Shown here in pieces: positions 5,001 to 45,400 of a stretch of DNA of 64,000 nucleotides (the stretch's first letter is position 1; the number at the start of each line of letters is the position of its first letter). Position numbers and translations under genes: made by a program. The DNA lies in NCBI GenBank assembly GCA_044892525.1, contig CM097885.1:7318001-7382000 (forward strand). The letters are read 5' to 3'. The notes beneath the pieces were generated by a model. That model had not been told where the DNA came from, ran no database searches, and saw only the letters and a list, made by a program, of their open reading frames with translations. The stretch comes from Schmidtea polychroa (Eukaryota).

Positions 5001-5438
5001 TTTTAGACCCTTTATTTATTGTAATTCAAAAATTTGGACCATTATTTACTTTAATTCAGAAATCTTAGCCTATAATTTACTGTAATTCAATTTTTAGACC
5101 CATAATTTGCTTTATTTTAAAAAATTTACCATGTTTTTTAGTGTAGACCACCTTTTTCTATTGAAATTCTCAGGACCAAGAATACCCCCCTGAATTGAAC
5201 TAGAAAAATCCATGCTTTTTTAGTGATGATCGGATTTTTGTATTGAAAAATTTTTTGTGTATTGAAAATCCCAGGACCATCGAGACCCCCTCACTATAGT
5301 CTGATAAAATAAAATTTGGACTAAAAATCCCTGAAAGCAAAAAAATGAGTTTTGAATAATTGCGTAATAAAAAGTTGGAACAATTTAATCCCCCCCCCCC
5401 CGGGGGTTATTTTTCCAGCGGGCTACTAACTACCTACT
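1..5438. mobile_element. Right part of a related non-coding Polinton-like TIR element (left end outside window)
   Basis: Ends GGGCTACTAACTACCTACT at 5438. 4490-5438 is reverse-complementary to ~14083-15770, 1440-2650 to ~16350-17540, and 1-1020 to ~22050-23078. Confidence 0.8.
3106..4480 (+). repeat. Degenerate GT-rich short-period repeat array (TAGTACTTGG, GGTTGTAGG, TAGTTG); mirror array at 15790-16450
   Basis: Directly visible shuffled 8-12-nt motifs with strong strand bias. Confidence 0.85.
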
Positions 5439-10219: not shown

Positions 10220-10775
10220 AATCATTTGGTGCTTTTATAGTGCTCAGAAAAAAACAATTGTTGAAGATGAGCTAGAAACTCTCTCTTTGTTTATATACCA
10301 GGATTTGGTCGGGCTTTAGCTCTCAAATAGCTATCTGAACCGATAGAACTTATTCTATACCCAAAACTTAATTATCTATTTGAAGCACATTTTAGAAAGA
10401 GAATCATGCTTATTAACAAAGATCATATTAGGGGAAATGAGTCAACTCAAATGTCATATCAAGATGATAATAATTTGTATGGGTGTGCTCTTTCTCAAAC
10501 TCTTCTAGTCGGTGGGTTCAGATGGTTAAAAGATAAGACTGAAATGGACAGTATTGTCGGGATATTTATGAGTGGCGGTGAGTTTGTTGGTGATCATGGT
10601 TATACTCTAGCGGTATATATTGTCATTTTTGACTGTATTCAAGATAAAATAAACAAAATAGACAATTTGTCTATAGACCTAGAACTTTGCTATCTACCTA
10701 ACAATAAAGTTTAGAAACTGCTTTTAACAAATGAATCAAAGACTACTTATGTGATTAATGGTAGAGTTTTATTAA
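10220..10775 (+). pseudogene. Decayed pPolB fragment (motif A region)
   Basis: INKDHIRGNESTQMSYQDDNNLYGCALSQTLLVGGFRW aligns with INKHHVEADESTQMSYLDVNNLYGWALSRKLPIGEFRW of the intact gene. Contains stops and frameshifts. Confidence 0.9.
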
Positions 10776-24753: not shown

Positions 24754-27514
24754 GGAATATATTATTGTAAGGGAGATATAGTCGATTGACTTTAATAAGA
24801 GATCGGTTAAGATGGGAAAATATGATCTTTTAAGGGAGATATAGTCGGTTAGATTTAATGAGAGATCGGTCAAGATGGAAATATTTCATTTTAAGAAAGA
24901 TATAGTCGGTTGCTTTTAATGAGGGAAGGGTTTCGATGGGAATCTTTTGAATATTTACATTGGTAATGTTGGTCAAATATCAATGTTTTAAGGGAAATTG
25001 CAATTAGTCAGTTATGAATCAATAATAATTATATCGTTTTATTAGGTTGTGATTAATCCATTGTATATTAATTTAGATTTATGGTTTATTAAGTAGGGTT
25101 AATGATCGATTTACTTGGTTTTGACAATGAAATCTTTACAAATAATTGGGATTGACTTCAACTTTAAATTATTTTTATCTTTATTTAGGCGGACAACGAC
25201 AAAAGTTGAGAAATATGGACTTAAAACATTGACTAAATAAAATAGATCTTTATTGGAAGAAATCTTGATTTTAATTAGTAATTAAATCGGTTGAATATCG
25301 GTAAAAATGATCATTTGAAGAAATATATTTTATTGAATGGATAAATTTAATCTTTCAATGGGACCTAGTCAGTTATATTGTAGTAATATTTATTTAAAAT
25401 ATCGAGTACAGTGATTAACAAAAAATTTAATTATAACCAGTTTTATCATTAGATTTTATAAATTATTTAGGGTTAATGATTTTACAGGTTTTATAGGGAA
25501 ATATTCGTGATAATACGAATTAAAGTTAGAATTATAGTCATTTAAAGGGGAGTTTAAGCAATCTTATTAGTTTGAGGTGAATATATGATCCTTTACGGTA
25601 CTTATCATTAAAATATCAATCTTTAAAGATAGTGTTATTTCAATGAAATTTGATGCTTTTTAGATGATATTTGTAATAATATGAATTAAGGATAGAAATA
25701 TAGTCATTTAAGGGGATTTTAAGGAATCTTGTTAGTTTGAGGTGAATATATGATCTTTAACAAGTACTTATCGATAAGATACTAATCTTAAAAGATATAG
25801 ATATTTCAGGGAAAATGATTCTTTTTAGATGATTTTATTAGAGAATTCACTTGGATATACCAATTATTTAAATGAATTTACTGGTTTGTTAGATGTTATC
25901 ATTAGTTATCTAGTCTCTTTTGGAATTTAATGATAATTATTTTTATTGTAGATTGCTGACTTTGATAATTGTAATGAATTTATACTGATTTTTTGAATAT
26001 ATTGAGAAATCAGTCAATCATTTTGAGTACTTTTAAAAAAATAATTAAAATTAATTTTATTTCAATTAATTTATTCAATCTAAATCAATTATCTACTAGA
26101 TCTTATCTTATTAATTTATTATCTTAGTTGATTCAACTTGAATGATCAGTATTTTTTTTTAATTTACTGGATGATTAATGATTAGAATTCTTTCTTGTCC
26201 ATTAATTAAATTTTTATGATATTTATTTCGAATAATTTAAATTTTTACAATAATTTAATCAATTTTTACCAAGTTATTGATGTCTTGAGTTCAATTAATT
26301 TTTCATCCAATTTGCCAAGTGATGAGTATTTTCTTTTAAAGATTAATTTGTTACTACATAGTTGTTGGTTGTAAGTAGTTGATAGTTGATATTTGATTGA
26401 CTTTTTAGATTTTGATAAGATAGTGTATGTGATGAAGAATGTTTTGTATTTAATTGCTATTATTTTTATGTGTGGTTAGTTGATTGTTGGTACTAAGTTG
26501 TTGGTATCTTGTATTTGGTAGTTGGTAGAGTGTTGTTAATTTCTCGATGGGTTTTGATGGTGGTTGTTAGTAACTAGTTGTAGGTATCTGGTTGTTAGTG
26601 TTTAGTATTTAGTTGTTTGAAACCTAGTTGTTAGTACATGGTAACTAATTAATGAGTAGGTGGGGGTTGAGTGTTACCAATACCCTTACGACCAGTACCC
26701 TTAGGGGGTCAAAACATCCTGTCGGATAGACTAAGAGTATATATAATAAAACTGATCAACAATAAGTATTTATTGAATGCGATTTTTACTTTGCAATAAT
26801 AAGTTATCAATTAAAAGAAGAATGTTTTGTAAATTAGAATTCATTAGTCTTTCATTGTAATTTAAATTATTTTGAATTTCACGTGGTGTTTTAAAGTGGT
26901 TGAGTTGTGGTTTTTTGATGAAAATCAACATTTTTTGTGTTAGGTGGTTAATGGGTAGGTGGGGGTTGAGAGTTAGCAATATCCTTACGACCAGTACCCT
27001 TACGACTAATACCCTTACGACCAGTAACCTTACGACCTGTACCCTTAGGGGGTCAAAACATCCTGTCGGATAAACTCAGAGTATATATAATAAAACTGAT
27101 CAACAATAAGTATTTATTGAATGCGATTTTTACTTTGCAATAATAAGTCAGTAGTTATCATTTAAAAGAAGAATGTTTTGTAAATTAGAATTCATTAGTC
27201 TTTCATTGTAATTAAAATTATTTTGAATTCCACGTGGTGATGAGTTGTGGTTTTTGATGAAAATCAACATTTTTGTTAAATTTGAAAAGGTTTCTCTAAT
27301 GATTGTAATTAAATATATTTTTGAAGATAGATAAAAAATTAATTTAAAAAGCATTTCATAAAATACAATAAAGAATATTTAGTAGTTAGTTGTAAGTATC
27401 TGGTTGTTTGAGAGTTAGTTAGTACGTGGTATCATGGTGTAAGTATTTGTTAGCACCTAGTTAAAAATAATCAGTAACCGATTGTTGGTAACTGTTGAAT
27501 TATTAGTATTTTTA

Positions 27515-27568
<54 letters not shown>

Positions 27569-28951
27569 CATTTAAATTTCCATTTAAATTTTCATTATAA
27601 ATTACATTTCTCAAAAAAGTTGGTGGTTATTCAATCTTTTGATAATAAATTTAAAAATCTTACTTTAATTTACTTATTTAGCTTTAATTTAAAATTTGAA
27701 CCATTGGTTACTTAATTTTAAATTTTGAACCTTAATTTACTTATTTAAAATTTTTAACTTTAATTTACCTAATTATTCTTTATTTCTTAATTTTACACCA
27801 TAATTTACTTAACAACTAATTATAACCATTATTTTCATATTTAACCAATAATTTCATGTGGTCATCTGGTTGTAAGTGTTTGGTATCTAGTTGACAGTGC
27901 TTAGTACTAGGTAAGTTACTTGGTTGTTAGTACTTGGTTGATAATGCTTAGTACCTGGTTGATGTTGGTTGTATGTACTTGGTATCTAGTTGTTAGTAAC
28001 TAGTTGTAGGTAATTAATGCTTAGTAGTTGGTAGTAGTATGTAGTAAGGACTCCAGCGCACTTTCAAGGTCATGGAATATCAAGATCAAATATAGACCAA
28101 TCGAATCATTTATTTTTTAAATTAACATTTTATTTAATTACTTCTTTTTAATTTTTCTTTTTAATTTTATTAATTAATTATTTTATGATGTTATATTTTA
28201 ATTACTTACTTTATTTAATTTTTAATTTATTACATTTAATTAATTTATTAGTTTATTAATATTTTATTTTAATTACTTACGCTTTATTATTATTATTTTA
28301 TTTATTTATTTATTTATTTATTTATTTTTTTATTTATTATTTTTTATTTATTTATTTATTTATTTATTTTTATTTTTATTTATTTTTTTTAATTTAAATT
28401 TTATTTAATTACTTCAATTTATTTATTTTTTAATTTTCTTAATTAATTATTTTATTATGTTTTTATTTTAGTTACTTACTTTAGTTAATTTTTAATTTAT
28501 TACATTTAATTAATTAATTAGTTTATTAATATTTTATTTTAATTACTAACGTTATTTAATTATTATTATTATTATTATTTATTTATTATTATTATTATTA
28601 TTTATTATTATTATTATTATTAATTTTTTTTTTTTTTTTTTTTAAATTTTACATTTACATTATATTCTAACAAGAGCGTAGATTATAACAGTAATATTTC
28701 AATTTGAATAAAATTTTAATTAGAAATTATTTAATTTATTATAAAATAAAACGCTGAGTTAATTTTAGATAAACCGGATATTAATTTTTCGGAAAAAATA
28801 AATAAATAAATAAAATAAACACGAAAATAATATTTCTTACTTGAAACTAATTATCTAAATTAATTGGACAAATAAATAATTAAATGATAAAACACATTTT
28901 AATTAACTAAGTCAAATAATTCACAATATATATTTTATTATTCACATAAAT

Positions 28952-31288
28952 TTAATTGTTAAAGTGCTTGTTTCGATTTGCATTCATTTGTAGACGGAGC
29001 AGTTGCAATATGCATTTGACGAATCTTATAGTGACCGTAGGCATAGCTTTCATTAGAATTGAACCAATATCTTTTATCATCCAAACATTGGAGAGCTCGT
29101 TTTTCTGTAATGAAAGTATCAACTGATGATTAACACTTCCTATTCTCTTTTGTTGGATGCTCACTGTTCCACCGTCAGTATACACTTTTTTATAAGCTTC
29201 ATGGGTGATATTAGAATTTGTAAGACTTATTCCTTTGGCTTTTAGAGTGTTTTTATCGCCTTGGAGTGAGTAGCATTTGGGTCGAAGAAACACCCATTCT
29301 TTATATTGGTTTCCTTTATTCTCATCCTTAACTTTCCCGATTACCGAACAAATTTTATCTGAGAACAATGGATCAGTCACTGGATAATTTGAAGTATCTA
29401 GGAGCCCATCTTCAATCATTTTTGGATATAGTTGTAAGCGTAAATCAACATTTTTACACTCTAAAAAGAAGGAATCTGTGTCACCGGCTACGATATTAAT
29501 TTGACAATTGAATTCTTCTCTATAACTCTGTAGTTCTTTATATTGAAACTTGTACATGCGAAATTTAGATAAATCAAGTACGGTTTGTCCAATATACATT
29601 GGTCTATCTAAACACACCATTTCCTTATCAAGTATAACAGCAATGAGATCATCCGCAATCTTGATGCTACGACGAAACATAGGATTACTACAATAAGTTA
29701 TCAATCTTTTGCTTTTGCTGCATAATCTCAAATTTATACGTTTCTTCAAGTTTTCCACAGTTTTACCGTATAAACTGTTGTTCTTTAACTTATAATAGTC
29801 TCGCTGAAACGAATCCGTACTAGCTGCTCTCATTTTGGTATTGTAATCAATATATCCTTTGAAAATAGCCACTTGCTTGAATTCTACAGCACGATTAACT
29901 TTTGTGACCTTTGCGCCGTAACTCATCCACTCTGTCAAAATTCTACCATTAACTACATAGTTTTTCTTAGGCTCATGAGTTAACAACAACTTTTCAACTT
30001 TACTACCAGGTGGATAACAAAGCTCAGGAGCTATAGGTAAATCATCTAGCTTATCTTGTATACTATCAGGAATGACGATGTCAACCTCTAGAACATATCC
30101 ACGATCTCCATCAAACTCATCCCCATTTGCACATCTTTCAACAATACCATTCATTTCAGTCTGATCATTTATCCATCTAAATTCACCAATAGGAAGTTTT
30201 CGCGACAGCGCCCATCCATATAAATTATTAACATCTAGGTATGACATTTGTGTTGATTCATCAGCTTCAACATGATGTTTGTTGATAAATGTCATTCCAC
30301 CACGAATACCAGCTTCAAATAAACGGTAAAGCTCTGGATCTTGAATAAGTTCTACTGGTTCAGGTAACTGTTTAATAGCTGATGCCCAACTTAATCCGGG
30401 TATGGAAACAAACGATAGAGCCTCAAGTCCATCTTCGTCAAATGTTTTTTCTCTGAAAGCTTCAAAAACATCGGCCAACAGAAAAACATCCAGCTTGAGA
30501 TATATTAGCATGTAATCTAGCAGTGTCTCACAGTTGTATTGTCGCCAGATTCGATTTGCATGTATATAATCTTCTTCACTAACTCCCTCCCAAATCGGTG
30601 GTAATTCTGTTATTGACTGTAAAACATCCATTGATGTAGCCATATCATAAGGAAAAATGGTTTTACAAGTCATCATCTGCGATTCGAAAACATCTGAGGT
30701 CAGTGGAAGACATGGTAAATTTTTTGATAAATTTGCCAAGCTGCTATTTAAAAATTGTAAAGAATCAATGAATCTAATTCTTCTGCCTTTCGATGTCGCT
30801 GTAAGTGTGAGAAACTTTTCTGTTGATTGAGGAATAACATTTAAATTCCAATCAGGGAATTTTCCAATTGCATATTTTAATATATGATGAATGTCATATC
30901 CACGAAGATTATGAAATACAACAGGTAAAGACGGATTGATTCTTCTAGCCAAGTTGCAATCTTGACATGCTGCTCCGAGATATTGACCAGTAAAATGATC
31001 ATGATCTCGAACAGGTATATTAATAATCTTTTTACAAAGGTAGCAATGTGTTTGAGTCGTGAATTCTTCCTGCTGTTCCCAAGTGAGTTCCATCATTTCC
31101 TTTGATCCATTAGTTTTATACCACGGATAAACTATGTCTGTAGCTATATCATCCAATGCTTGTATAAACTGAATGATACAGTTTTTCCCAACAAATGTTT
31201 CATTTCGAATCGGACAACCTTGATGAAGAAGCACAAATTCAGATGCAATCGGCTCATGTTTTTGGAAGTGTTTGTCATCTAGAGGTAA
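28952..31288 (-). pseudogene. Inverted, 5'-truncated duplicate of the pPolB gene
   Basis: Translation is identical to the + copy from LPLDDKHFQK onward, and the ExoI motif is lost. A 1-nt deletion near 29120 (CAGTTGATACTTTC vs CAGTTGTATACTTTC) shifts the C-terminus. The ORF-track N-terminus (31289-31369) is non-coding hairpin sequence. Confidence 0.9.
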
Positions 31289-31519
31289 GAGAGAAAAAGC
31301 GAGAGAAAAAACAGTAGAGTAGGGTATTGTGTGGAGTCGATGAGTCATATGACCTTGATGAGTCATCACGATGAGTCATGGCCTTTGTTTAAAAAAAATT
31401 TTTACCCCCCCCTCCCCGGGGGTATGACTTATATGTCTTTGTGACGTCATCGATGACGTCATATGTCTTTGTTCCCGACTCCACACAATACCCTGTTTTT
31501 TCTCTCTCTTTTTCTCTCT
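31288..31519. repeat. ~230-bp hairpin with AGAGAG...CTCTCT ends; loop carries TGAGTCA, TGACGTCA and a C/G tract
   Basis: Perfect 19-bp arms AGGGTATTGTGTGGAGTCG (31321-31339) and CGACTCCACACAATACCCT (31476-31494), extended by AGAGAGAAAAAGCGAGAGAAAAAACAG and CTGTTTTTTCTCTCTCTTTTTCTCTCT. Confidence 0.85.
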
Positions 31520-31559
31520 TTTCTCTTTGTTCGATTGGGATTTAAGTGTAACAATGTAT

Positions 31560-32165
31560 AGGCAGAATTTAATTCTCTACAAAATGGCTCAATTAAAACT
31601 TTAGTTTGTCGCTTTGTGTGTAATACACACATGTTTTTACGATAAATTTGTATTTTCGCGCGGTTAACGTAATTTTCTTGGATTTTTATTCATATATTAT
31701 ATAGATAAAATTTAATTTTCTATAAAATAGCTTGATTACAAATTATGTCTCGTATGTTGTGTGTAATACACACAATTTTTTACGATAAATTTGTATTTTT
31801 CATATAGTTAACGTAATTTTCTTAGGATTTTATTCATATAATATATAGATAAAATTTAATTTTCTATAAAATAGCTTGATTAAAAAATATGTCTCGTATG
31901 TTGTGTGTAATACACACATGTTTTTACGATAAATTTGTATTTTTCATACAGTTAACGTAATTTCCTTGGATATTTATTCATATATTATATAGATAAAATT
32001 TAATTTTTCTATAAAATAGCTTGATTAAAAATTATGTCTCGTATGTTGTGTGTAATACACACATGTTTTTACGATAAATTTGTATTTTTCATACAGTTAA
32101 CATAATTTCCTTGTATATTTATTCATATATTATAGAGATAAAATTTAATTTTCTATAAAATGGAT
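31560..32165 (+). repeat. ~144-bp tandem repeat, ~4 copies, each with palindrome TGTGTGTA-A-TACACACA
   Basis: The palindrome recurs at ~31615, 31759, 31903 and 32047. Confidence 0.9.
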
Positions 32166-32729
32166 TGATCTAGAGTTTAAAATGTTGTATTATTTTATTA
32201 CTTTGTTGCAATATTTTTATAATCTTATAACAATTTGCTTAAATATTTTACATCTGGTGAAATATTTCCGAAATATGTTATTACTTTGTTGTAATTTACT
32301 GAAAGACTTCACAATTTATTACAATATTCTTTTTAATTTGTTGTCCGTCTTCGAAATAATGCATTGATTTGTCCCAATTAACATCATTATTTTATTACTT
32401 TGTTGCAATATTTTTATTATTTTAGTTACAATTTGATAAATATTTTACAACTTTGTTGAAATTTTCTGAAATATGTTACTACTTTGTTGTAATATTTTCT
32501 AATCTTGTTACAATTTGCTTAAATATTTTACAACTGTTGAAAATTTATCAGAAATATGTTATTACTTTGTTACAATTTTATGAAAACGTTATTACTGTTT
32601 TGCAATTTGATGAAAAATGATATTACTTTGTGGGTTCATCACATTATTTTTTTATTAAATTATTATGAAAAATGTTAAATAAGTCAACTTTAGCATCAAA
32701 ATGTGTTTTAAAATACTGCAACGTAATGC

Positions 32730-32870
32730 ATTTATTTTTCCTACCCCCTTCCTTGATTTTGATTGGTCAGAATATATTTATTTTTCCTACCCCTTCCTTC
32801 ATTTTGATTGGTCAGAATTTAATCATGTGTAATATATAAGCAGTAACTTTTCAAATGTTTGTCATTTAAA
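32730..32870 (+). promoter_or_regulatory. Putative Pol II promoter of pPolB: duplicated inverted CCAAT box, TATA box, Inr-like TCATT
   Basis: A ~47-bp direct repeat contains GATTGGTCAG twice (~32761, ~32806). TATATAAG is at 32833 and TCATT at 32862, about 30 nt downstream, just before the first intron. Confidence 0.6.
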
Positions 32871-32890
32871 CTTTTAATTTAACTTATATA

Positions 32891-35800
32891 AGTGAATAAT
32901 TTTTTATTCTCTATCTAATATTAATGATTATTTTCTTTTAGTGAACGGATGCAGTTTATATAAATTTTGTATTGCCGAAAGTCATGAAGATGTGGAGAAC
33001 TGTAAATCAGTTACATCATCATATTTCAAGATAAATGACTCTACCTTATCGGGTTACATATGTCCGGAATGTCTCATTATATCACCAGGTAGGTGGTTAA
33101 TGTTTGTACGACAACACGGACACCATCTTAGAAGATTCGAAGAAACGAAGAGCAGGATGATCACTAAAAGTAATACCCTTTCTACTATTAACAATTATTA
33201 ATTTTTTATAGTACAATCGAAAATGAATACATCATACGATCCTAAGCAGATTAAAGAATATGTTACAAGTTATGTTATTTAAGTTGTTTAATATTAATTA
33301 TAAATATAGTTAGACAAAACTCTGGCACCACAAAACGAAAGTCAATATTTTACGGAAATGGAGACTCTAACATACAATTGTGTCCACGTCGGGAGACTGA
33401 CTTAAATGGTTCTCGTGTTGAATTGACAAGCGATGTATCTGCAATTAATTCTCCTGACATTGTTGTTCCAGATTGTCTCATCAAAGAAATAGAAGATCAT
33501 ATTCAACGAATGGGGACAGTAAAAATCCAATTTGGACTTTGTGCAGAGTTTATCAAAGAGGATGGTGAAATTAAAAAATGGTGTTTGTCGAATAAAGCAA
33601 TTACAATGTCATCTTCATTTATTAATGATGGAATTGAAAAATTAAAAGAAAAGTTAGAGAAATACACTCAACAAAGTAGTGGGTGGAGAATTCATAAAAT
33701 ATTAGAAGTTACTATGATTTTAACTAAATTATCAGACATAATACATGTATCTGGTAAGTTTATTTACATTATTATATATATAAATCTAGATATTTACTTA
33801 GGTTCAAGTTACATTAAAACGCCAAATTACCTGAAAAACTGCCAGGCTTTAGTTAATGTTCAAAATAATGATCAATTTTATTTTTATATAGCATACTGGC
33901 CGTATTACATTATGATGACATACGTCGGGATAGAGAAAGAACAACAAAATATAACTTAAGTGGTAATATATATATATATTTATAAATGTCATAAATCATT
34001 GAAATTTGTTTTTAAGACTTAAAATGGAAATTTGAATGGTTTCCGATGAAGTTGGTTAACATTTGCCAATTCGAAGCAATGAATCCAAATCTAGCGATCA
34101 ATGTTCTCAAATATAATAAAGATCCAATTAAACAAAAAACTAATGATATTTTCAAGAATCCGTTCGTTGACTTGGTATATAAAAGTACTTCGACGGGATC
34201 TCAAATATATCTCTTATTGATTGAAGAAGGTAATATTTCCATTAATCATTAAAATATTAACTAAATTTTAGAATTAAATTATCATTTTTTGGCTGTAACC
34301 AATCTCGATCGACTGCTGAATTACAGGGATAAAGTAGAAGGAGTCAGAATCCAATCACATTGGTGTCATACATGTCTTCATGGGTTTCAAAAACGTCCTG
34401 CTTTTGAAAGACATATAGGTCTTTGTAGGAAGAATGTGGAGCGGACGACTCTATACTCAATGCCAGAGAATAAATATATCGAATTTAAAGACTGGAGTAA
34501 AACTATAAAACAGCAGTTTGTTGTCTACGCGGACTTTGAATCGATATTACCTCTAGATGACAAACACTTCCAAAAACATGAGCCGATTGCATCTGAATTT
34601 GTGCTTCTTCATCAAGGTTGTCCGATTCGAAATGAAACATTTGTTGGGAAAAACTGTATCATTCAGTTTATACAAGCATTGGATGATATAGCTACAGACA
34701 TAGTTTATCCGTGGTATAAAACTAATGGATCAAAGGAAATGATGGAACTCACTTGGGAACAGCAGGAAGAATTCACGACTCAAACACATTGCTACCTTTG
34801 TAAAAAGATTATTAATATACCTGTTCGAGATCATGATCATTTTACTGGTCAATATCTCGGAGCAGCATGTCAAGATTGCAACTTGGCTAGAAGAATCAAT
34901 CCGTCTTTACCTGTTGTATTTCATAATCTTCGTGGATATGACATTCATCATATATTAAAATATGCAATTGGAAAATTCCCTGATTGGAATTTAAATGTTA
35001 TTCCTCAATCAACAGAAAAGTTTCTCACACTTACAGCGACATCGAAAGGCAGAAGAATTAGATTCATTGATTCTTTACAATTTTTAAATAGCAGCTTGGC
35101 AAATTTATCAAAAAATTTACCATGTCTTCCACTGACCTCAGATGTTTTCGAATCGCAGATGATGACTTGTAAAACCATTTTTCCTTATGATATGGCTACA
35201 TCAATGGATGTTTTACAGTCAATAACAGAATTACCACCGATTTGGGAGGGAGTTAGTGAAGAAGATTATATACATGCAAATCGAATCTGGCGACAATACA
35301 ACTGTGAGACACTGCTAGATTACATGCTAATATATCTCAAGCTGGATGTTTTTCTGTTGGCCGATGTTTTTGAAGCTTTCAGAGAAAAAACATTTGACGA
35401 AGATGGACTTGAGGCTCTATCGTTTGTTTCCATACCCGGATTAAGTTGGGCATCAGCTATTAAACAGTTACCTGAACCAGTAGAACTTATTCAAGATCCA
35501 GAGCTTTACCGTTTATTTGAAGCTGGTATTCGTGGTGGAATGACATTTATCAACAAACATCATGTTGAAGCTGATGAATCAACACAAATGTCATACCTAG
35601 ATGTTAATAATTTATATGGATGGGCGCTGTCGCGAAAACTTCCTATTGGTGAATTTAGATGGATAAATGATCAGACTGAAATGAATGGTATTGTTGAAAG
35701 ATGTGCAAATGGGGATGAGTTTGATGGAGATCGTGGATATGTTCTAGAGGTTGACATCGTCATTCCTGATAGTATACAAGATAAGCTAGATGATTTACCT

Positions 35801-36877
35801 ATAGCTCCTGAGCTTTGTTATCCACCTGGTAGTAAAGTTGAAAAGTTGTTGTTAACTCATGAGCCTAAGAAAAACTATGTAGTTAATGGTAGAATTTTGA
35901 CAGAGTGGATGAGTTACGGCGCAAAGGTCACAAAAGTTAATCGTGCTGTAGAATTCAAGCAAGTGGCTATTTTCAAAGGATATATTGATTACAATACCAA
36001 AATGAGAGCAGCTAGTACGGATTCGTTTCAGCGAGACTATTATAAGTTAAAGAACAACAGTTTATACGGTAAAACTGTGGAAAACTTGAAGAAACGTATA
36101 AATTTGAGATTATGCAGCAAAAGCAAAAGATTGATAACTTATTGTAGTAATCCTATGTTTCGTCGTAGCATCAAGATTGCGGATGATCTCATTGCTGTTA
36201 TACTTGATAAGGAAATGGTGTGTTTAGATAGACCAATGTATATTGGACAAACCGTACTTGATTTATCTAAATTTCGCATGTACAAGTTTCAATATAAAGA
36301 ACTACAGAGTTATAGAGAAGAATTCAATTGTCAAATTAATATCGTAGCCGGTGACACAGATTCCTTCTTTTTAGAGTGTAAAAATGTTGATTTACGCTTA
36401 CAACTATATCCAAAAATGATTGAAGATGGGCTCCTAGATACTTCAAATTATCCAGTGACTGATCCATTGTTCTCAGATAAAATTTGTTCGGTAATCGGGA
36501 AAGTTAAGGATGAGAATAAAGGAAACCAATATAAAGAATGGGTGTTTCTTCGACCCAAATGCTACTCACTCCAAGGCGATAAAAACACTCTAAAAGCCAA
36601 AGGAATAAGTCTTACAAATTCTAATATCACCCATGAAGCTTATAAAAAAGTGTATACTGACGGTGGAACAGTGAGCATCCAACAAAAGAGAATAGGAAGT
36701 GTTAATCATCAGTTGTATACTTTCATTACAGAAAAACGAGCTCTCCAATGTTTGGATGATAAAAGATATTGGTTCAATTCTAATGAAAGCTATGCCTACG
36801 GTCACTATAAGATTCGTCAAATGCATATTGCAACTGCTCCGTCTACAAATGAATGCAAATCGAAACAAGCACTTTAA
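32891..36877 (+). CDS. polB: Protein-primed family B DNA polymerase (Polinton/adintovirus type), spliced, with N-terminal terminal-protein/OTU-like region, endonuclease VII-like Zn motif, 3'-5' exonuclease and polymerase domains
   Basis: ORF 34289-36877 has ExoI YADFES, CYLC..RDHDH..CQDCN, ExoII FHNLRGYD, motif A YLDVNNLYG, motif B KLKNNSLYGK, motif C GDTDS and PKCY. Upstream ORF pieces join in frame through GT-AG introns 32892-32941, 33170-33211, 33269-33309, 33754-33801, 33963-34016 and 34230-34271, giving SGW, GSSYIKTP..VNVQNND, FPMK..QFEAMNP..INV and YHFLAVTNLDRL. One missing T at 33881-33885 must be assumed. Confidence 0.9.
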
Positions 36878-37947
36878 CAATTAAATTTATGTGAATAATA
36901 AAATATATATTGTGAATTATTTGACTTAGTTAATTAAAATGTGTTTTATCATTTAATTATTTATTTGTCCAATTAATTTAGATAATTAGTTTCAAGTAAG
37001 AAATATTATTTTCGTGTTTATTTTATTTATTTATTTATTTTTTCCGAAAAATTAATATCCGGTTTATCTAAAATTAACTCAGCGTTTTATTTTATAATAA
37101 ATTAAATAATTTCTAATTAAAATTTTATTCAAATTGAAATATTACTGTTATAATTTACGCTCTTGTTAGAATATAATGTAAATGTAAAATTTAAAAAAAA
37201 AAAAAAAAAAAATTAATAATAATAATAATAATAAATAATAATAATAATAATAAATAAATAATAATAATAATAATAATTAAATAACGTTAGTAATTAAAAT
37301 AAAATATTAATAAACTAATTAATTAATTAAATGTAATAAATTAAAAATTAACTAAAGTAAGTAACTAAAATAAAAACATAATAAAATAATTAATTAAGAA
37401 AATTAAAAAATAAAAAAAAAATAAATAAATAAATAAAAAAATAAATAAATTGAAGTAATTAAATAAAATTTAAATTAAAAAAATAAATAAATAAAAATAA
37501 AAAAAAATAAATAAATAAATAAATAAAATAATAATAATAAAGCGTAAGTAATTAAAATAAAATATTAATAAACTAATAAATTAATTAAATGTAATAAATT
37601 AAAAATTAACTAAAGTAAATAATTAAAATATAACATCATAAAATAATTAATTAATAAAATTAAAAAGAAAAAAAAAATAAATAAATAAATAGAAGTAATT
37701 AAATAAAATTTAAATTAAAAAATAAATAAATTAATTAAAAAAAAAATAAATAAATAAAAAATAAATAAATAAAAATAAATAATAATAAAGCGTAAATAAT
37801 TAAAATAAAATATTAATAAACTAATAAATTAATTAAATGTAATAAATTAAAAATTAAATAAAGTAAGTAATTAAAATATAACATCATAAAATAATTAATT
37901 AATAAAATTAAAAAGAAAAATTAAAAAGAAGTAATTAAATAAAATGT

Positions 37948-38607
37948 AATTTAATTTTTTAGGACCATTATTTACTTTAATTTAATTTTTAGAACCATAA
38001 TTTACTTTAATTTAAAAATTTGGACCATTATTTACTGTAATTTAATTTTTTAGAACCATTGATTACTTTAATTTAATTTTTAGACCCATAATTTACTTTA
38101 ATTCAAAAATTTGGACCATTATTTACTTTAATTGAAAAATTTACCACGTTTTTTAGTGTAGACCACCTTTTTCTCAGGACCAAGGAGACCCACCTTAATT
38201 TAATTCGAAAAAACCATGCTTTTTTTAGTGATAGTCGGATTTTTGTATTGAAAATATCCTGAGACCTTAAATTACCATGCTTTTTTATTGAAGACCGCCT
38301 TTTGTATTGAAAAAATCCTGAGACCTTAAATTACCATGCTTTTTTATTGATAGTCGGAATTTTGTATTGAAAATCCCAGGACCAAGGAGACCCCCTCACT
38401 ATAGTGTGAAAAATCCTTGGCTTTTTTATTGATAGTCGGATTTTTGTATTGAAAAAAAATTTTTTTGTATTGAAAATCCCAGGACCATTGAGACCCCCTC
38501 ACTATAGTCTGAAAAATTGCGTAATCAAAAGTTGCAGCAAAAAAAATCGTGCAGCAGAACCCCCCCCCCCCGGGGTCATTGCTGCAGCGGGCTCCTAAAT
38601 ACCTACT
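37948..38607 (-). repeat. Right terminal inverted repeat
   Basis: Reverse complement of the 14083 end; terminates in ACCTACT immediately before the CTAACG TSD. Confidence 0.8.
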
Positions 38608-38939
38608 CTAACGGATGAGAATCCTAATACTACATATAGCTGAAATCTGTTGATTAGTACAACTTCACTGTATAAACATAAAGATAATGATGAGCTGATA
38701 TCTTTCTAATTTGAATAATAATAAATTAAATATTCAAAGAACTAAATTAAAAAATTACGTAAAATAATGCTTATCTAATTAATACAATTACTAATTTCAA
38801 ATTTCTGCCTTTATTTTTTTCAAGGATTAAAACAAATTGTTCAATGTTTATTACAGCAGGTTTGTTAATGAATAAGATGCTTAGAAAAAACTAAATTTAG
38901 ATTAAACATACAAATCCATGAATATTAATATGATTTGAT

Positions 38940-39610
38940 TCAGAGGTCGGCGAATATCCACTAACAATATTTGGGAAAAATGTATATATAAATGGTAGTA
39001 ACTCATTTATTGCTGTATCGGGGAATGGGGGAAACTTTTATGGTTTGACTTATTTAAGTGCCTCCTGTGCCAAACCCGATGAGGTACTCTCCTAATTAAA
39101 TGATTAATATACTAACAAAATATACATCTAGATGTGTATTAATAGAAAAGATTGGGAAACAAACAGCTTATATCCATTTTTTTATCTTTGGGTCGGTCAG
39201 AATAACTTCAATGAGATTTTCCCAATAACGAAGATTGAAAGTAAAGAGTTCTCATTTAAAATTTTATATAATGTCTTCGTGTAGGCTTTAGTTCAAAAGT
39301 TCAGAAACTCGAATTCAATGCCAATAAACACAATTCAACTTTCTTCGTAAGTTGGAAGATTGCGCCATATTCAACTGTTCAAAGTTTTTACGTAGTTGAA
39401 GTTTTACACTCAAAATCTAAAGAACTTTCTATGGCTTACATTTTGAAGTGTAAAACGTGCAGTGGAATGCAAAAACAAGTAAATATTTAATAATCAAAGT
39501 TATCATTCTCGGTATTATGTCCCCACTATAATGGACGTGTTAGTTATACTTTGAAAATTACACAACAAATATTGCCCCATTGCCGATGTCTTAATCATGC
39601 TGGATACTCC
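38940..39610 (+). pseudogene. Possible host gene or pseudogene exons with tiny introns, unknown product
   Basis: Coding-like blocks (GGEYPLTIFGKNVYINGSNSFIAVSGNGGNFYGLTYLSASCAKPDE) are separated by GT..AG gaps of ~45 nt (e.g. 39084-39131, 39241-39284). Some frame breaks. Confidence 0.3.
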
Positions 39611-42487: not shown

Positions 42488-45400
42488 TAGGGTGGGTCGA
42501 ATGTTAATAAATTTTGAGTTCAAGAAAGGAAACATGGTTAAAAAGTTGTATTTTGGTATAGAAAAATCGAATCAAACCATTTTACTTAGATTTATGGACA
42601 TTTACTGCTCCCAACTTTTCTCCGAAAATGCAGTTCAACATAAGTGTGAAAACAATGTAATTTGGCTAGTGTCGGAATGTGTTTTGCGCCTTTGTCCATA
42701 TTTAGATGTAGCTTTCTTAAGAGCTTATAAGTATATTATTTACTCTCTTGGGCTGAGACAGTATATTCTGTGTCCTCATCCCGCATTGAAATATATCCTG
42801 ACAACGTCAGTGATTAGGAAGGGCCAAATTTGAATTATCCTTTTCAAAGACAAAAATCAACTTTCGAAATTATTTTTTATTAAAAACATCCAGCCAAAAG
42901 TTTAGAAATGTATTAGCGAGGGCATAAAAAGAAGTCACATGAAATCAGCTTTGCTTTGCACCTTGGGCAATTCCTTCCTTGATTTTTTACACAGTAGTAC
43001 CATACCATGTCTGGACTTGTGACCAAACACTTTGCAACTGGCAGAAGAAACATCTTTGATGGCTCTTTCAACGGCTTGAGAATGACAGGGAAATTGTTCT
43101 AATGTAATTTTCTTATTCATCTTCAATTCATGATCCAATATATGAAATAAAAGAGGGGGAGGCGTCAAATTACATTTTGTCCAGTCAATCATGTCAACAT
43201 ATGATGTAGCAGACGACTGAAGAAAGACAGTATTCTTGTCCATAGTGCGAATCACTTCGGAAGGGAGAAAATTTTGTCTTGCAGTTATGATTTTTTCTGT
43301 TGCAAACTTTCTGATTTCTTCATCATCATCACCAACAGCAGCTAGGAGTATATTTTCTGGATGTGAGAAGTAATTGTTGTTCTGAATGACAGGAAAGATG
43401 ATTTCTTGGTCTGATGGATCCAAATCCTGCAGAAGTTGGAGCATATAAAAATATTTCTTGCACCATCTTGGCATGACGAGTGAGTCTTTATATAAAACCA
43501 TGACGGTCCATAGAAATTGACAATAAATTTCACTATTCGCTTGAGAGGTTCAGATGGATCAGTTTCGGACATATATAGTCGCAGAATTCTATTAGCTTTC
43601 GTTAGCCAGCGACTGTGATTCAAATTTCCTGGTTGTGCCATTTGTAGAAAAGGGACATCCTTGTTGTTGTGGTACCCTTTCTGGACTGCCAAGCATACTC
43701 TGAGGAAATACAATTGATCAGTGTTCAATTCTTTCTTGACATTTTCACTAATATCTACGACCTTTCCAGGAAGGGACATAAAGGCTACTACGGGCTTGTC
43801 TTTTGGATCAAAATCAAGAACGCTTCCTATTTCACCACATGACGTTTTTGGACCTTTTGTTTCTCCACCATCGACGTCTGAAAAATACTTCCTGAATGGC
43901 AATTCATTTGCATGCAACAAGCATATCAGCCATTGTAGAGGTCGCCCTAGGCTTTTTTCGAGTCTTCTGATTATTCCATTATTTTTTCCGGTGTTTGTAT
44001 TGGTTCCATCGCACACAATGGCTTGAAGGGTCAGTGAGGACTGCGTGCTAACGATGATTGACATGATTTCTTTGCCAATATCCACAGCTTTACTACTTTG
44101 AGGTACAACATGATCGATATATGTATCCCCTGGAAAGGCGACAATCACATAATGCTCCTCTTTTAGGATCCTTCTATGAAGTAAGGTGGAATCTTGTTTC
44201 CCGTCGAAACCGAGGCAAATCAAGTTTTTCGCTTCTGCTGAATGCTGTTCAATTTCTCTCTCCCTCCAGTACTTTCTCTGACGCCGTAATTTTGCGGGAT
44301 CGATGATTGTTTGAGAGGATAACAGTTCCATATCTTTCAGAAAAGCGTTTACTAGCAAACACGTGTCTCTGTTGCTCACACCACATCTGTCAACAGCTTT
44401 ACTTAATTCAGGATAATGTCTTCTATTTTGAAATTCATCACATTCTTCTACGCTTGACTCTGAGCTTTCTGTTGAATTGTCTAACTTATCTTTACTTTCA
44501 TCACTAGCGGCTTCACTCTCCGTGTCACTTCTTGAGGTCGGATGTAGATCGTTAACTTCAGTGTCCATTATTTCATTTTTCATTTGTTTTCCTTTTCCTG
44601 TAGGGCTGCTTTTCGTTTGTTTTCTCTTCAATTTTGAGGTTTCCTGTCTGTCCGTATTTCCGATTTTCATGTTTCTGGTAGTTTGTTGGTCAATCCAGAA
44701 CTCCCACTCTAAGGTAGGAATTTTCAAGGCCAATCGGCATGTACACTGACTTCTTCCACGAGCACCATCATTAAAACATTTGCAGCAACATATGTCAAAC
44801 AATTTGGAAAACGAGCTTAACTTATCTTGAAATTTGGCAGATGACCTCTTGCAATCTGGATACTTCTCTAATTCACGCACTTTTGATATTAGTCGCTTGA
44901 CACGAACCACAATACTACTGAACTCAACAGTTGGGATACTTGCCTTCATATAAATTTCCTTCACCTTATTTGTGAGAAGAGTTGCTTGTTCGTTAAAGCC
45001 AGTATGAAATTGCGTACATTTCTCATTGTAACAGTAATCACGAAACACATCTTCACAAGTAGGTAATTGGTTTCTGGGTAGTTCACAAGTTTGACCAAAC
45101 AGACAATGACGTGATTTACTTCTTGTTTTGCGAAATTGCTTATTTCTCTGTCCCTTCATAACTGCTCTTCTGTACTCAGCTCTGGCAAAATAAAAGTGAA
45201 TCATCAAGTTAACTTTTTTAATTAGGTCCAGCAAACACTTGACATCCAATCGAAACAAATTAAATTATCTGAGTTTAGACTGACTAGTAGTATCCATGTA
45301 GATTATGTGTTGACTGTAGTGTGTGTGTTAGTATTGTTCAGAGGAAATTGTCTTTGTGAGTGCTTGTGTGAAGGTGCTTCCGTGAATTAACCTCTCTATA

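Follow-up and report, generated by a model that had tools for sequence, protein, structure and literature searches.

A 64-kb stretch of the Schmidtea polychroa genome (the window; positions given without a locus label refer to it) carries a gene for a protein-primed DNA polymerase of viral type, and six short segments that look like spliceosomal introns interrupt its 5′ part. Polymerase genes of Polintons are usually intron-free, as the first-pass annotation had stated: the available text of two papers describes the core genes of intact Mavericks/Polintons as intronless (PMC8097293; 10.1101/2022.07.12.499685). Are the segments spliced out of this gene, and did it acquire them in this host or bring them along?

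Intron candidates were read from the DNA as GT..AG segments and numbered 1 to 6 from 5′ to 3′ (Table 1). All six have GT..AG ends and are in phase 1, with exactly the lengths and coordinates first reported for them. Their GC content is 0.12-0.19, versus 0.28-0.37 in the intervening exons, and after each intron the exon is open in phase 1 only. Reading through runs into stops in five of the six; intron 4 is in frame and stop-free. In the 1.4-kb 5′ part, a scan for GT..AG segments of 40-55 nt with a GC content of ≤0.2 gave 13 candidates, which overlap and are almost all variants of the called introns, and in the 2.6-kb polymerase exon it gave none. This last exon is a single open frame that matches Pfam DNA_pol_B_2 (PF03175; E 3.6e-31), which bears out its earlier naming as a Polinton/adintovirus-type polymerase. 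It had been described as an intron-free exonuclease/polymerase exon. The scan and a spliced aligner, which placed no intron there with any of four homologues (4/4), agree on the absence of introns, but the end of the OTU domain also lies within it.

Table 1. Features of the polymerase gene and of the palindromic element that contains it, in window coordinates.
Feature	Position	Strand	Remarks
Left terminus	28033..28054	+	begins AGTAGT (Polinton-type end)
Left-arm terminal region	28055..28951	.	AT-rich, non-coding; inverted match to 36717-37954
Second polymerase exon, inverted	28952..31288	-	5′-truncated; without introns and N-terminal exons
Central segment	31289..31518	.	non-coding, short inverted repeat; also central in other copies
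Tandem repeat	31614..32161	.	144 bp, 3.8 copies (TRF); upstream of promoter
Putative promoter	32730..32839	+	ATTGG (reverse CCAAT) in both of two 45-bp repeats, followed by TATATAA at 32833-32839; sequence, TRF
Exon 1	32865..32891	+	5′ end inferred from TATA-like box; last base is first base of start codon
Intron 1	32892..32941	+	50 nt, phase 1; start codon split; residue 1 of homologue P0011 aligns at 32941
Exon 2	32942..33169	+	N-terminal Cys/His-rich domain; tblastn to homologues, E down to 2e-9
Intron 2	33170..33211	+	42 nt, phase 1; directly 3′ of Cys/His domain
Exon 3	33212..33268	+	variable linker; 57 nt, stop-free in 30/30 copies
Intron 3	33269..33309	+	41 nt, phase 1
Exon 4	33310..33753	+	linker and terminal-protein-like (little-finger/PAD fold) domain
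Intron 4	33754..33801	+	48 nt, phase 1; border of terminal-protein-like and OTU domains
Exon 5	33802..33962	+	OTU domain start; frame broken in window copy at ~33873-33880
Intron 5	33963..34016	+	54 nt in window, 43-62 nt in other copies; phase 1; within OTU domain
Exon 6	34017..34229	+	OTU domain middle
Intron 6	34230..34271	+	42 nt, phase 1; four codons 5′ of invariant OTU histidine
Exon 7	34272..36877	+	OTU end, exonuclease and polymerase domains; intron-free
Right-arm terminal region	36878..37954	.	AT-rich; ~last 85 nt and terminus missing

The exons had been expected to join in frame. For the window copy this fails: exon 5 has 161 nt, the total exon length of 3710 nt is not a multiple of three, and spliced alignment of the window copy required a frameshift at 33873-33880 with 7/7 homologues. 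The window copy is therefore unable to make the full protein. Exon 5 is open in 28 of 29 other copies, and the remaining copy has a separate break of its own.

The start codon appears to be assembled by splicing. Exon 1 has no usable ATG, and the junction A/GT..AG/TG, in which the slashes mark the borders of intron 1, is found in 30/30 copies. The spliced start resembles the starts of homologues (MNTC, MSNC and MNYLC; M-N-x-C or alike). Since removal of intron 1 creates the start codon, no full protein would be made without splicing. The region with ATTGG and TATATAA may act as the promoter. An alternative first intron of 113 nt with an ATG at 32825 was ranked lower, since the TATA-like box lies downstream of this ATG and the starts of homologues agree with the split codon; from an in-frame ATG at 32855 only four codons can be read before a stop. 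Trans-splicing of a leader with a terminal AUG is known from flatworms. Such a leader would lead to an immediate stop at either nearby acceptor, and this candidate was rejected.

Homologous proteins were used to ask which segments are missing from the product. From 120 listed homologues we took those with 1090 aa or more, 74 in number, and aligned them to the unspliced DNA sequence. Intron 4 corresponded to a gap of 15-17 codons in 39/39 spanning alignments, intron 5 to a gap of 16-18 codons in 59/68, and intron 6 to a gap of 13-15 codons in 58/70, with one alignment lacking a gap. Homologues do not align through these segments but skip them with gaps of matching length, and introns 4 to 6 are by this evidence probably absent from the protein. 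None of the 74 homologues gave an alignment spanning introns 1 to 3. A spliced aligner that was given no coordinates placed introns 4 and 6 exactly with 7/7 references and intron 5 with 6/7, in phase 1. With seven homologues it recovered the donor of intron 2 in 6/7 and both of its ends in 2/7, and the acceptor of intron 3 in 6/7 and both of its ends in 3/7. An intron 2-like site is present in two relatives (L095 and L102). For introns 1 to 3 it is only the frame, the flanking homology and this spliced alignment that suggest absence from the protein. ORF callers would truncate such genes, in line with the earlier remark that ORF-based screens easily miss them; several database homologues start at the first Met past the intron-6 position and may have been truncated in this way.

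The six segments have the features of U2-type introns: GT..AG ends, a T-rich 3′ end, and host-like size and composition. In host chaperonin genes we counted 18 short introns (found with at least two references; GC ≤0.25) of 40-109 nt, 16 of which were 40-57 nt, with phases 11:5:2. Size fits, as had been proposed, but six of six in phase 1 is unlike the phases of these host introns (Fisher p 0.003). No pair among the six window introns was more alike than shuffles at p 0.02, the test for introners. Rfam gave no match at the gathering score in 27500-39000, and the segments are also far too short for group I or group II introns.

The domains of the encoded protein were assigned on the intronless homologue P0003, the first 440 residues of which were folded (72 rows, mean pLDDT 83). 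In the model, the structural match of residues 117-228 is to the little finger of Y-family polymerases (Z 8.7, rmsd 2.4, 92 aligned) and that of residues 239-372 is to OTU proteases (Z 7.1, rmsd 4.2, 106 aligned); these Z values are modest, and by alignment to this model the window gene is predicted to contain a terminal-protein-like and an OTU domain. Foldseek gave no match at E 0.001. The catalytic Cys and His of the OTU domain are invariant in the 72 aligned rows, and the Cys is present in 31/31 motif reads from other copies. On the intronless homologue, intron 4 falls at residue 234, the border between the two domains, and introns 5 and 6 fall at residues 288 and 359, inside the OTU domain. 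Introns 2 and 3 map to the linker past the Cys/His-rich N-terminal domain, upstream of the terminal-protein-like domain. Thus, the first-pass placement of all six introns in the terminal-protein/OTU region holds for introns 4 to 6, but intron 1 splits the start codon and introns 2 and 3 are in the upstream linker. The Cys/His-rich domain of exon 2 may bind zinc. The accessible part of 10.1101/2024.03.18.585575 describes a layout of terminal protein followed by a viral OTU (vOTU) domain, proposes that the two are cleaved apart and reports a coral Polinton in which they are naturally split; the window gene has the same domain order. The encoded protein would consist of a Cys/His domain, a terminal protein, an OTU protease, an exonuclease and a polymerase, that is, a Polinton-type, protein-primed enzyme.

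The genome (781 Mb) contains many copies of the gene with 97-99% identity (among the best 52 and best 41 matches listed), and the family therefore appears young in this genome. In 29 other copies, GT..AG was retained at 173/174 intron instances and 144/145 exon instances were multiples of three. Intron lengths varied among these copies (intron 1, 50-51 nt; intron 5, 43-62 nt; intron 6, 32-43 nt) and included non-multiples of three. Substitutions in exons 2 to 6 found in at least three copies were 11 replacement and 11 silent (ratio 0.34, p 0.011 versus neutral), and those found in at least five copies were 6 and 10 (ratio 0.20, p 0.002). Private substitutions were 51 replacement and 19 silent (ratio 0.90); the difference between shared and private substitutions had p 0.067, with small counts. 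For exon 7 the ratio was 0.21 for shared (p 1e-10) and 0.60 for private substitutions. This pattern indicates purifying selection on the spliced frame across copies, which are not independent of each other because they were chosen as the best-scoring ones and include paired arms.

The gene is part of a palindromic element. In the window, the arms at 29120-31288 and 34547-36715 are 100% complementary, and 99.96% over 2254 nt. The 22-mer of the left terminus has 254 exact matches in the genome, versus none for the reversed control. Among the best 52 matches there were 12 head-to-head pairs, on four chromosomes. Four full palindromes were read; they are ~8-12.7 kb, have two head-to-head polymerase genes, and all four have AGTAGT ends and 6-bp target duplications, while the window copy has the left terminus only. 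The window copy is a dead member, with the frameshift in exon 5, a truncated left arm and no right terminus. Of 20 further copies, 13 had a second arm, whole or partial. Among the first 100 termini listed there were 30 terminus pairs, 27 of which span ≤13.3 kb. Of the longer ones, a 20-kb pair is a split arm and not a complete Polinton, and a 30-kb pair has no Polinton gene in its middle.

No capsid, packaging ATPase or integrase module was found in the window or the four palindromes, nor inside the element upstream of the 20 further copies. Weak integrase matches (23-42% over part of the protein) occur near 3/20 of the latter, outside the arms, and in one 20-kb span they are within an insertion that splits an arm; we read them as belonging to other mobile elements. 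We found no complete Polinton with the same terminus (3 of 18 candidate stretches examined). The element is a Polinton derivative without capsid and integrase, which forms one giant inverted repeat. At locus L194, a terminus of the window family lies inside the ATPase gene of another Polinton and the ATPase match is outside the terminus; this locus appears to be a palindrome inserted into a complete element.

Other mobile sequences were seen, most of them in the same genome, in which complete Polintons are abundant. A second polymerase-only palindrome of ~14.5 kb (L154:7568 to L156:2112; C3, ~42.84-42.85 Mb) has AGTAGG ends, a 6-bp duplication and arms 99.2-99.8% alike, and its polymerase has a long open frame and belongs to a different lineage. 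Most of the best 150 genome matches to the packaging ATPase have one TGA inside the match; this could reflect the spread of a very large Polinton family whose members have this stop in common, or else a short frame end. Complete Polintons also carry a gene like that for TATA-binding protein (L158:7750-8208 and L071:11330-11779; PF00352, E 3e-15). The ORF L071:13480-13977, at the end of a metagenomic Polinton contig, may encode a protein like a ubiquitin-conjugating enzyme. A chaperonin gene fragment (profile positions 311-454) is scattered over the genome in many copies that lie within long frames, as might result from capture by a mobile element. In the window itself, a 640-codon open frame on the minus strand (43342-45264), without a Pfam match and with unnamed eukaryotic clusters as its atlas look-alikes (0.97), is probably the transposase of another element; at 10286-10771 lies a remnant of a related polymerase, decayed and interrupted by two stops. 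Short Polinton-end-like motifs at 5431, 6723, 14083, 17541, 38600 and 41691 adjoin gene-less repeat blocks and probably mark non-autonomous relatives.

The two arms of an element are 99.84-100% identical (0-4 differences per 2500), versus 97.4-99.0% between elements (1.0-2.6%), and in one element a frameshift is common to both arms. Such near-identity could be explained by copying through a fold-back (hairpin) intermediate, most likely by the element's own terminal protein and polymerase; it is from arm identity alone that we infer hairpin replication. Insertion would be by the integrase of complete Polintons in the same genome. A possible though unlikely alternative is that the arms were made alike by gene conversion after insertion and that the palindrome is a passive product of deletion and duplication, with the introns as described. 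Long inverted repeats can convert each other, and one arm is truncated in many copies. However, polymerase-only palindromes with 6-bp duplications have arisen in two distinct polymerase lineages of this genome, and the polymerase has been under selection during spread.

The age of the introns was examined in 61 related loci with enough upstream DNA, 17 of which were close metagenomic relatives. Four of the 17 (L075, L078, L079 and L087; 51-56% identity; L079 and L087 are one family) have introns at the codons of introns 4 and 6, and these are 43-48 nt, AT-rich and in phase 1. Intron positions are kept in the other copies of this genome, and two of the sites recur in metagenomic relatives. None of the four has an intron at the intron-5 site, which was seen only in the window family. 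L075 and L078 have additional upstream phase-1 introns and the same ATTGG/TATA promoter layout; both are without the Cys/His N-terminal domain and have short acidic first exons (L075:171-308 and L078:140-288). The contigs that continue L075 and L079 have no capsid-module gene within ~1 kb past the polymerase, as in the window. The introns of L083 and L095 (one element), L085 and L102, three or four per locus and all in phase 1, are confined to the linker; those of L083, L085 and L095 were missed by the aligner and picked by eye, so that the phase count is biased to expectation. L083, with three of these introns, has a double-jelly-roll-like capsid gene (atlas, 0.98), an integrase and an ATPase gene. 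At L085:242-423, two adjoining 66-nt phase-1 linker exons are duplicates of each other with similar introns, an exon duplication within a viral-type gene.

Single frames were found in L069-L072, L074 and L084. Other Polinton families in the genome also have long single frames, yet with an AG acceptor just 5′ of the Cys/His domain. Intron calls by the aligner in L090 and in the distant homologues L105-L143 and L144-L153 were mostly of GC 0.25-0.62 or inconsistent between references, and were set aside as artefacts. In viral contigs, a single-protein scan gave no match and a profile scan gave four distant loci.

The first-pass annotation took host-sized introns as a sign of long nuclear residence in the host. 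The evidence does not support this: relatives with 51-56% identity have introns 4 and 6 at identical codons, and the copies here are 97-99% alike. Because the same two sites are used in metagenomic relatives, and because a relative with capsid and integrase genes also has phase-1 introns, the introns are probably old and did not arise through residence in this host. The opposite reading, with real introns gained in the host during a long nuclear residence and the matching sites of relatives explained as parallel gains at favoured positions, seems rather improbable to us. In its favour, the carriers of introns 4 and 6 are not monophyletic: the window, L075/L079 and L078 are placed among intronless forms (AU p 6e-89; LG+G4, 16 rows, omitting rows that cover under half of the alignment, most database proteins and outgroups), and their distribution takes at least three changes on the 16-row tree. 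In the tree the closest relatives are L069 and L070, which have single ORFs; intron 5 is confined to the window family, and introns at shared sites are not alike in sequence between the window and the relatives. A tree of the terminal-protein exon alone, although poorly resolved, did not unite the carriers either. However, parallel gain would require three separate lineages to acquire introns at the same two codons and in the same phase. Moreover, it leaves aside the three such introns of the relative with capsid, integrase and ATPase genes, and the family is young in this genome. Ancestral introns with repeated loss or recombination appear to be the simpler reading. Introns 4 and 6 would then be old in the polymerase clade; some lineages would have retained them, and others would have lost them or had them removed by recombination.

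Sequencing runs were searched for spliced transcripts. Fifteen runs were listed, none recorded as RNA, and contigs of four were compared with the gene (X1 and X4, guessed to be RNA; X2; and X6, DNA-like). Contigs of X1 and X4 bridged introns 2 and 3 unspliced. None of the seven contigs of X2 had a joint, and three ran into intron sequence; X2 was not counted as evidence because its cover is of the gene span only (20/30 bins). Of 126 joints, 15 were shown, all of them from X6. The unspliced contigs are no refutation of splicing, since the genome has more than 100 mostly decayed copies and the guessed-RNA runs may contain DNA. That the segments are unspliced, old AT-rich insertions in a dead gene, and that the palindromes are mobilised wholly by the enzymes of other Polintons, is very improbable. 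The guessed-RNA runs did give unspliced contigs only and the window copy is broken, but the spliced frame and exon 7 are under purifying selection, the exact GT..AG borders coincide with homologue gaps, and the sites are conserved in relatives whose frames need the cuts. An origin of the palindromes as assembly artefacts from fold-back reads, which arms of up to 100% identity might suggest, can practically be dismissed, as in 4/4 cases the two flanks of a palindrome are unlike each other and bear 6-bp direct duplications, and head-to-head pairs recur on four chromosomes.

We therefore favour, as a likely reading of the whole, a spliced Polinton-type polymerase with old introns 4 and 6, in a palindromic, polymerase-only derivative that copies itself by fold-back and borrows its integrase. 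Six ordinary GT-AG introns would split the N-terminal third of the gene and would be removed by the host spliceosome. Speculatively, skipping or retention of the symmetrical phase-1 exons might tune the terminal protein against the polymerase. Such exons would also permit exon duplication, with L085 as an example. A wider proposal, which we put forward only tentatively and think doubtful, is that a clade of animal Polintons controls its replication polyprotein by splicing, in a manner like that of adenoviruses, and that hairpin polymerase-only replicons are a distinct capsid-less class that borrows only the integrase. If so, the start codon would exist only after splicing, and through retention or skipping at the conserved phase-1 introns, one of which marks the terminal-protein/OTU border, the full polymerase would be accompanied by free terminal protein or by forms that lack the protease.

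Conserved introns would tie the expression of virus-like elements to the host nucleus and spliceosome, and their sites could serve as positional characters for the history of these elements. They might also represent an intermediate on the way to adenoviruses, which have spliced replication genes and a separate terminal protein. As a natural minimal Polinton, the palindrome is a system in which the proposed fold-back replication could be tested by observation in one genome with more than 100 young copies. An intronless state is a criterion for picking 'intact' elements in the available text of PMC8097293, and under this rule intron-bearing lineages would be classed as decayed, with polymerase calls that omit the terminal protein. 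The literature searched describes neither conserved spliceosomal introns in a Polinton polymerase nor palindromes that have the polymerase as their only gene; Repbase, supplements, the founding paper and a 2024 review were outside the scope of this search and may describe such exons.

Among known systems, the element is closest to Polintons/Mavericks (eupolintoviruses; Alpha adintoviruses, with OTU and pfam03175 PolB). It shares with them the PF03175 polymerase, the terminal-protein-like and OTU domains (10.1101/2024.03.18.585575; PMC8502044) and, in its family, the Maverick signature of (AGT)2 ends and a 6-bp target duplication (PMC8097293), as far as the available parts of these papers describe them. 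Its nearest relatives have capsid, integrase and ATPase genes, and its polymerase is 50-62% identical to those of complete elements. It differs in its six spliceosomal introns, where intact elements are reported as intronless, in its lack of integrase, capsid and ATPase, and in being as a whole one inverted repeat with two polymerase genes. Without integrase and capsid it is not a complete Polinton, but it works in the manner of a Polinton replication module.

Spliceosomal introns in Polinton-like elements have a precedent in the dinoflagellate Polinton-like viruses invaded by introners (PMC12166617, in the part available). Those introns are copies of intron-making transposons, whereas the window introns are unlike each other, host-sized and in phase 1, with two sites conserved across distant lineages. 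In the accessible text, group I introns are another known exception (PMC12220804), and intron-bearing cargo genes are a further one (10.1101/2022.07.12.499685). The available portions of PMC8502044, 10.1101/2023.08.22.554363 and PMC6431247 add nothing on splicing of Polinton polymerases.

A likeness to adenoviruses lies in the start of the gene. The polymerase and terminal-protein mRNAs of the adenovirus E2B region start a protein-primed polymerase from a tiny spliced 5′ exon, as would the window gene. In adenoviruses the terminal protein is encoded separately and the OTU is inactive, according to the available part of 10.1101/2024.03.18.585575. In contrast, the window gene has these domains fused, with introns also inside the OTU domain. 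Its palindromic form has another counterpart. Fold-back and non-autonomous inverted-repeat transposons have a palindromic body, transposon ends and a borrowed integrase, as the window element appears to have; unlike them, it keeps a selected replication gene in both arms.
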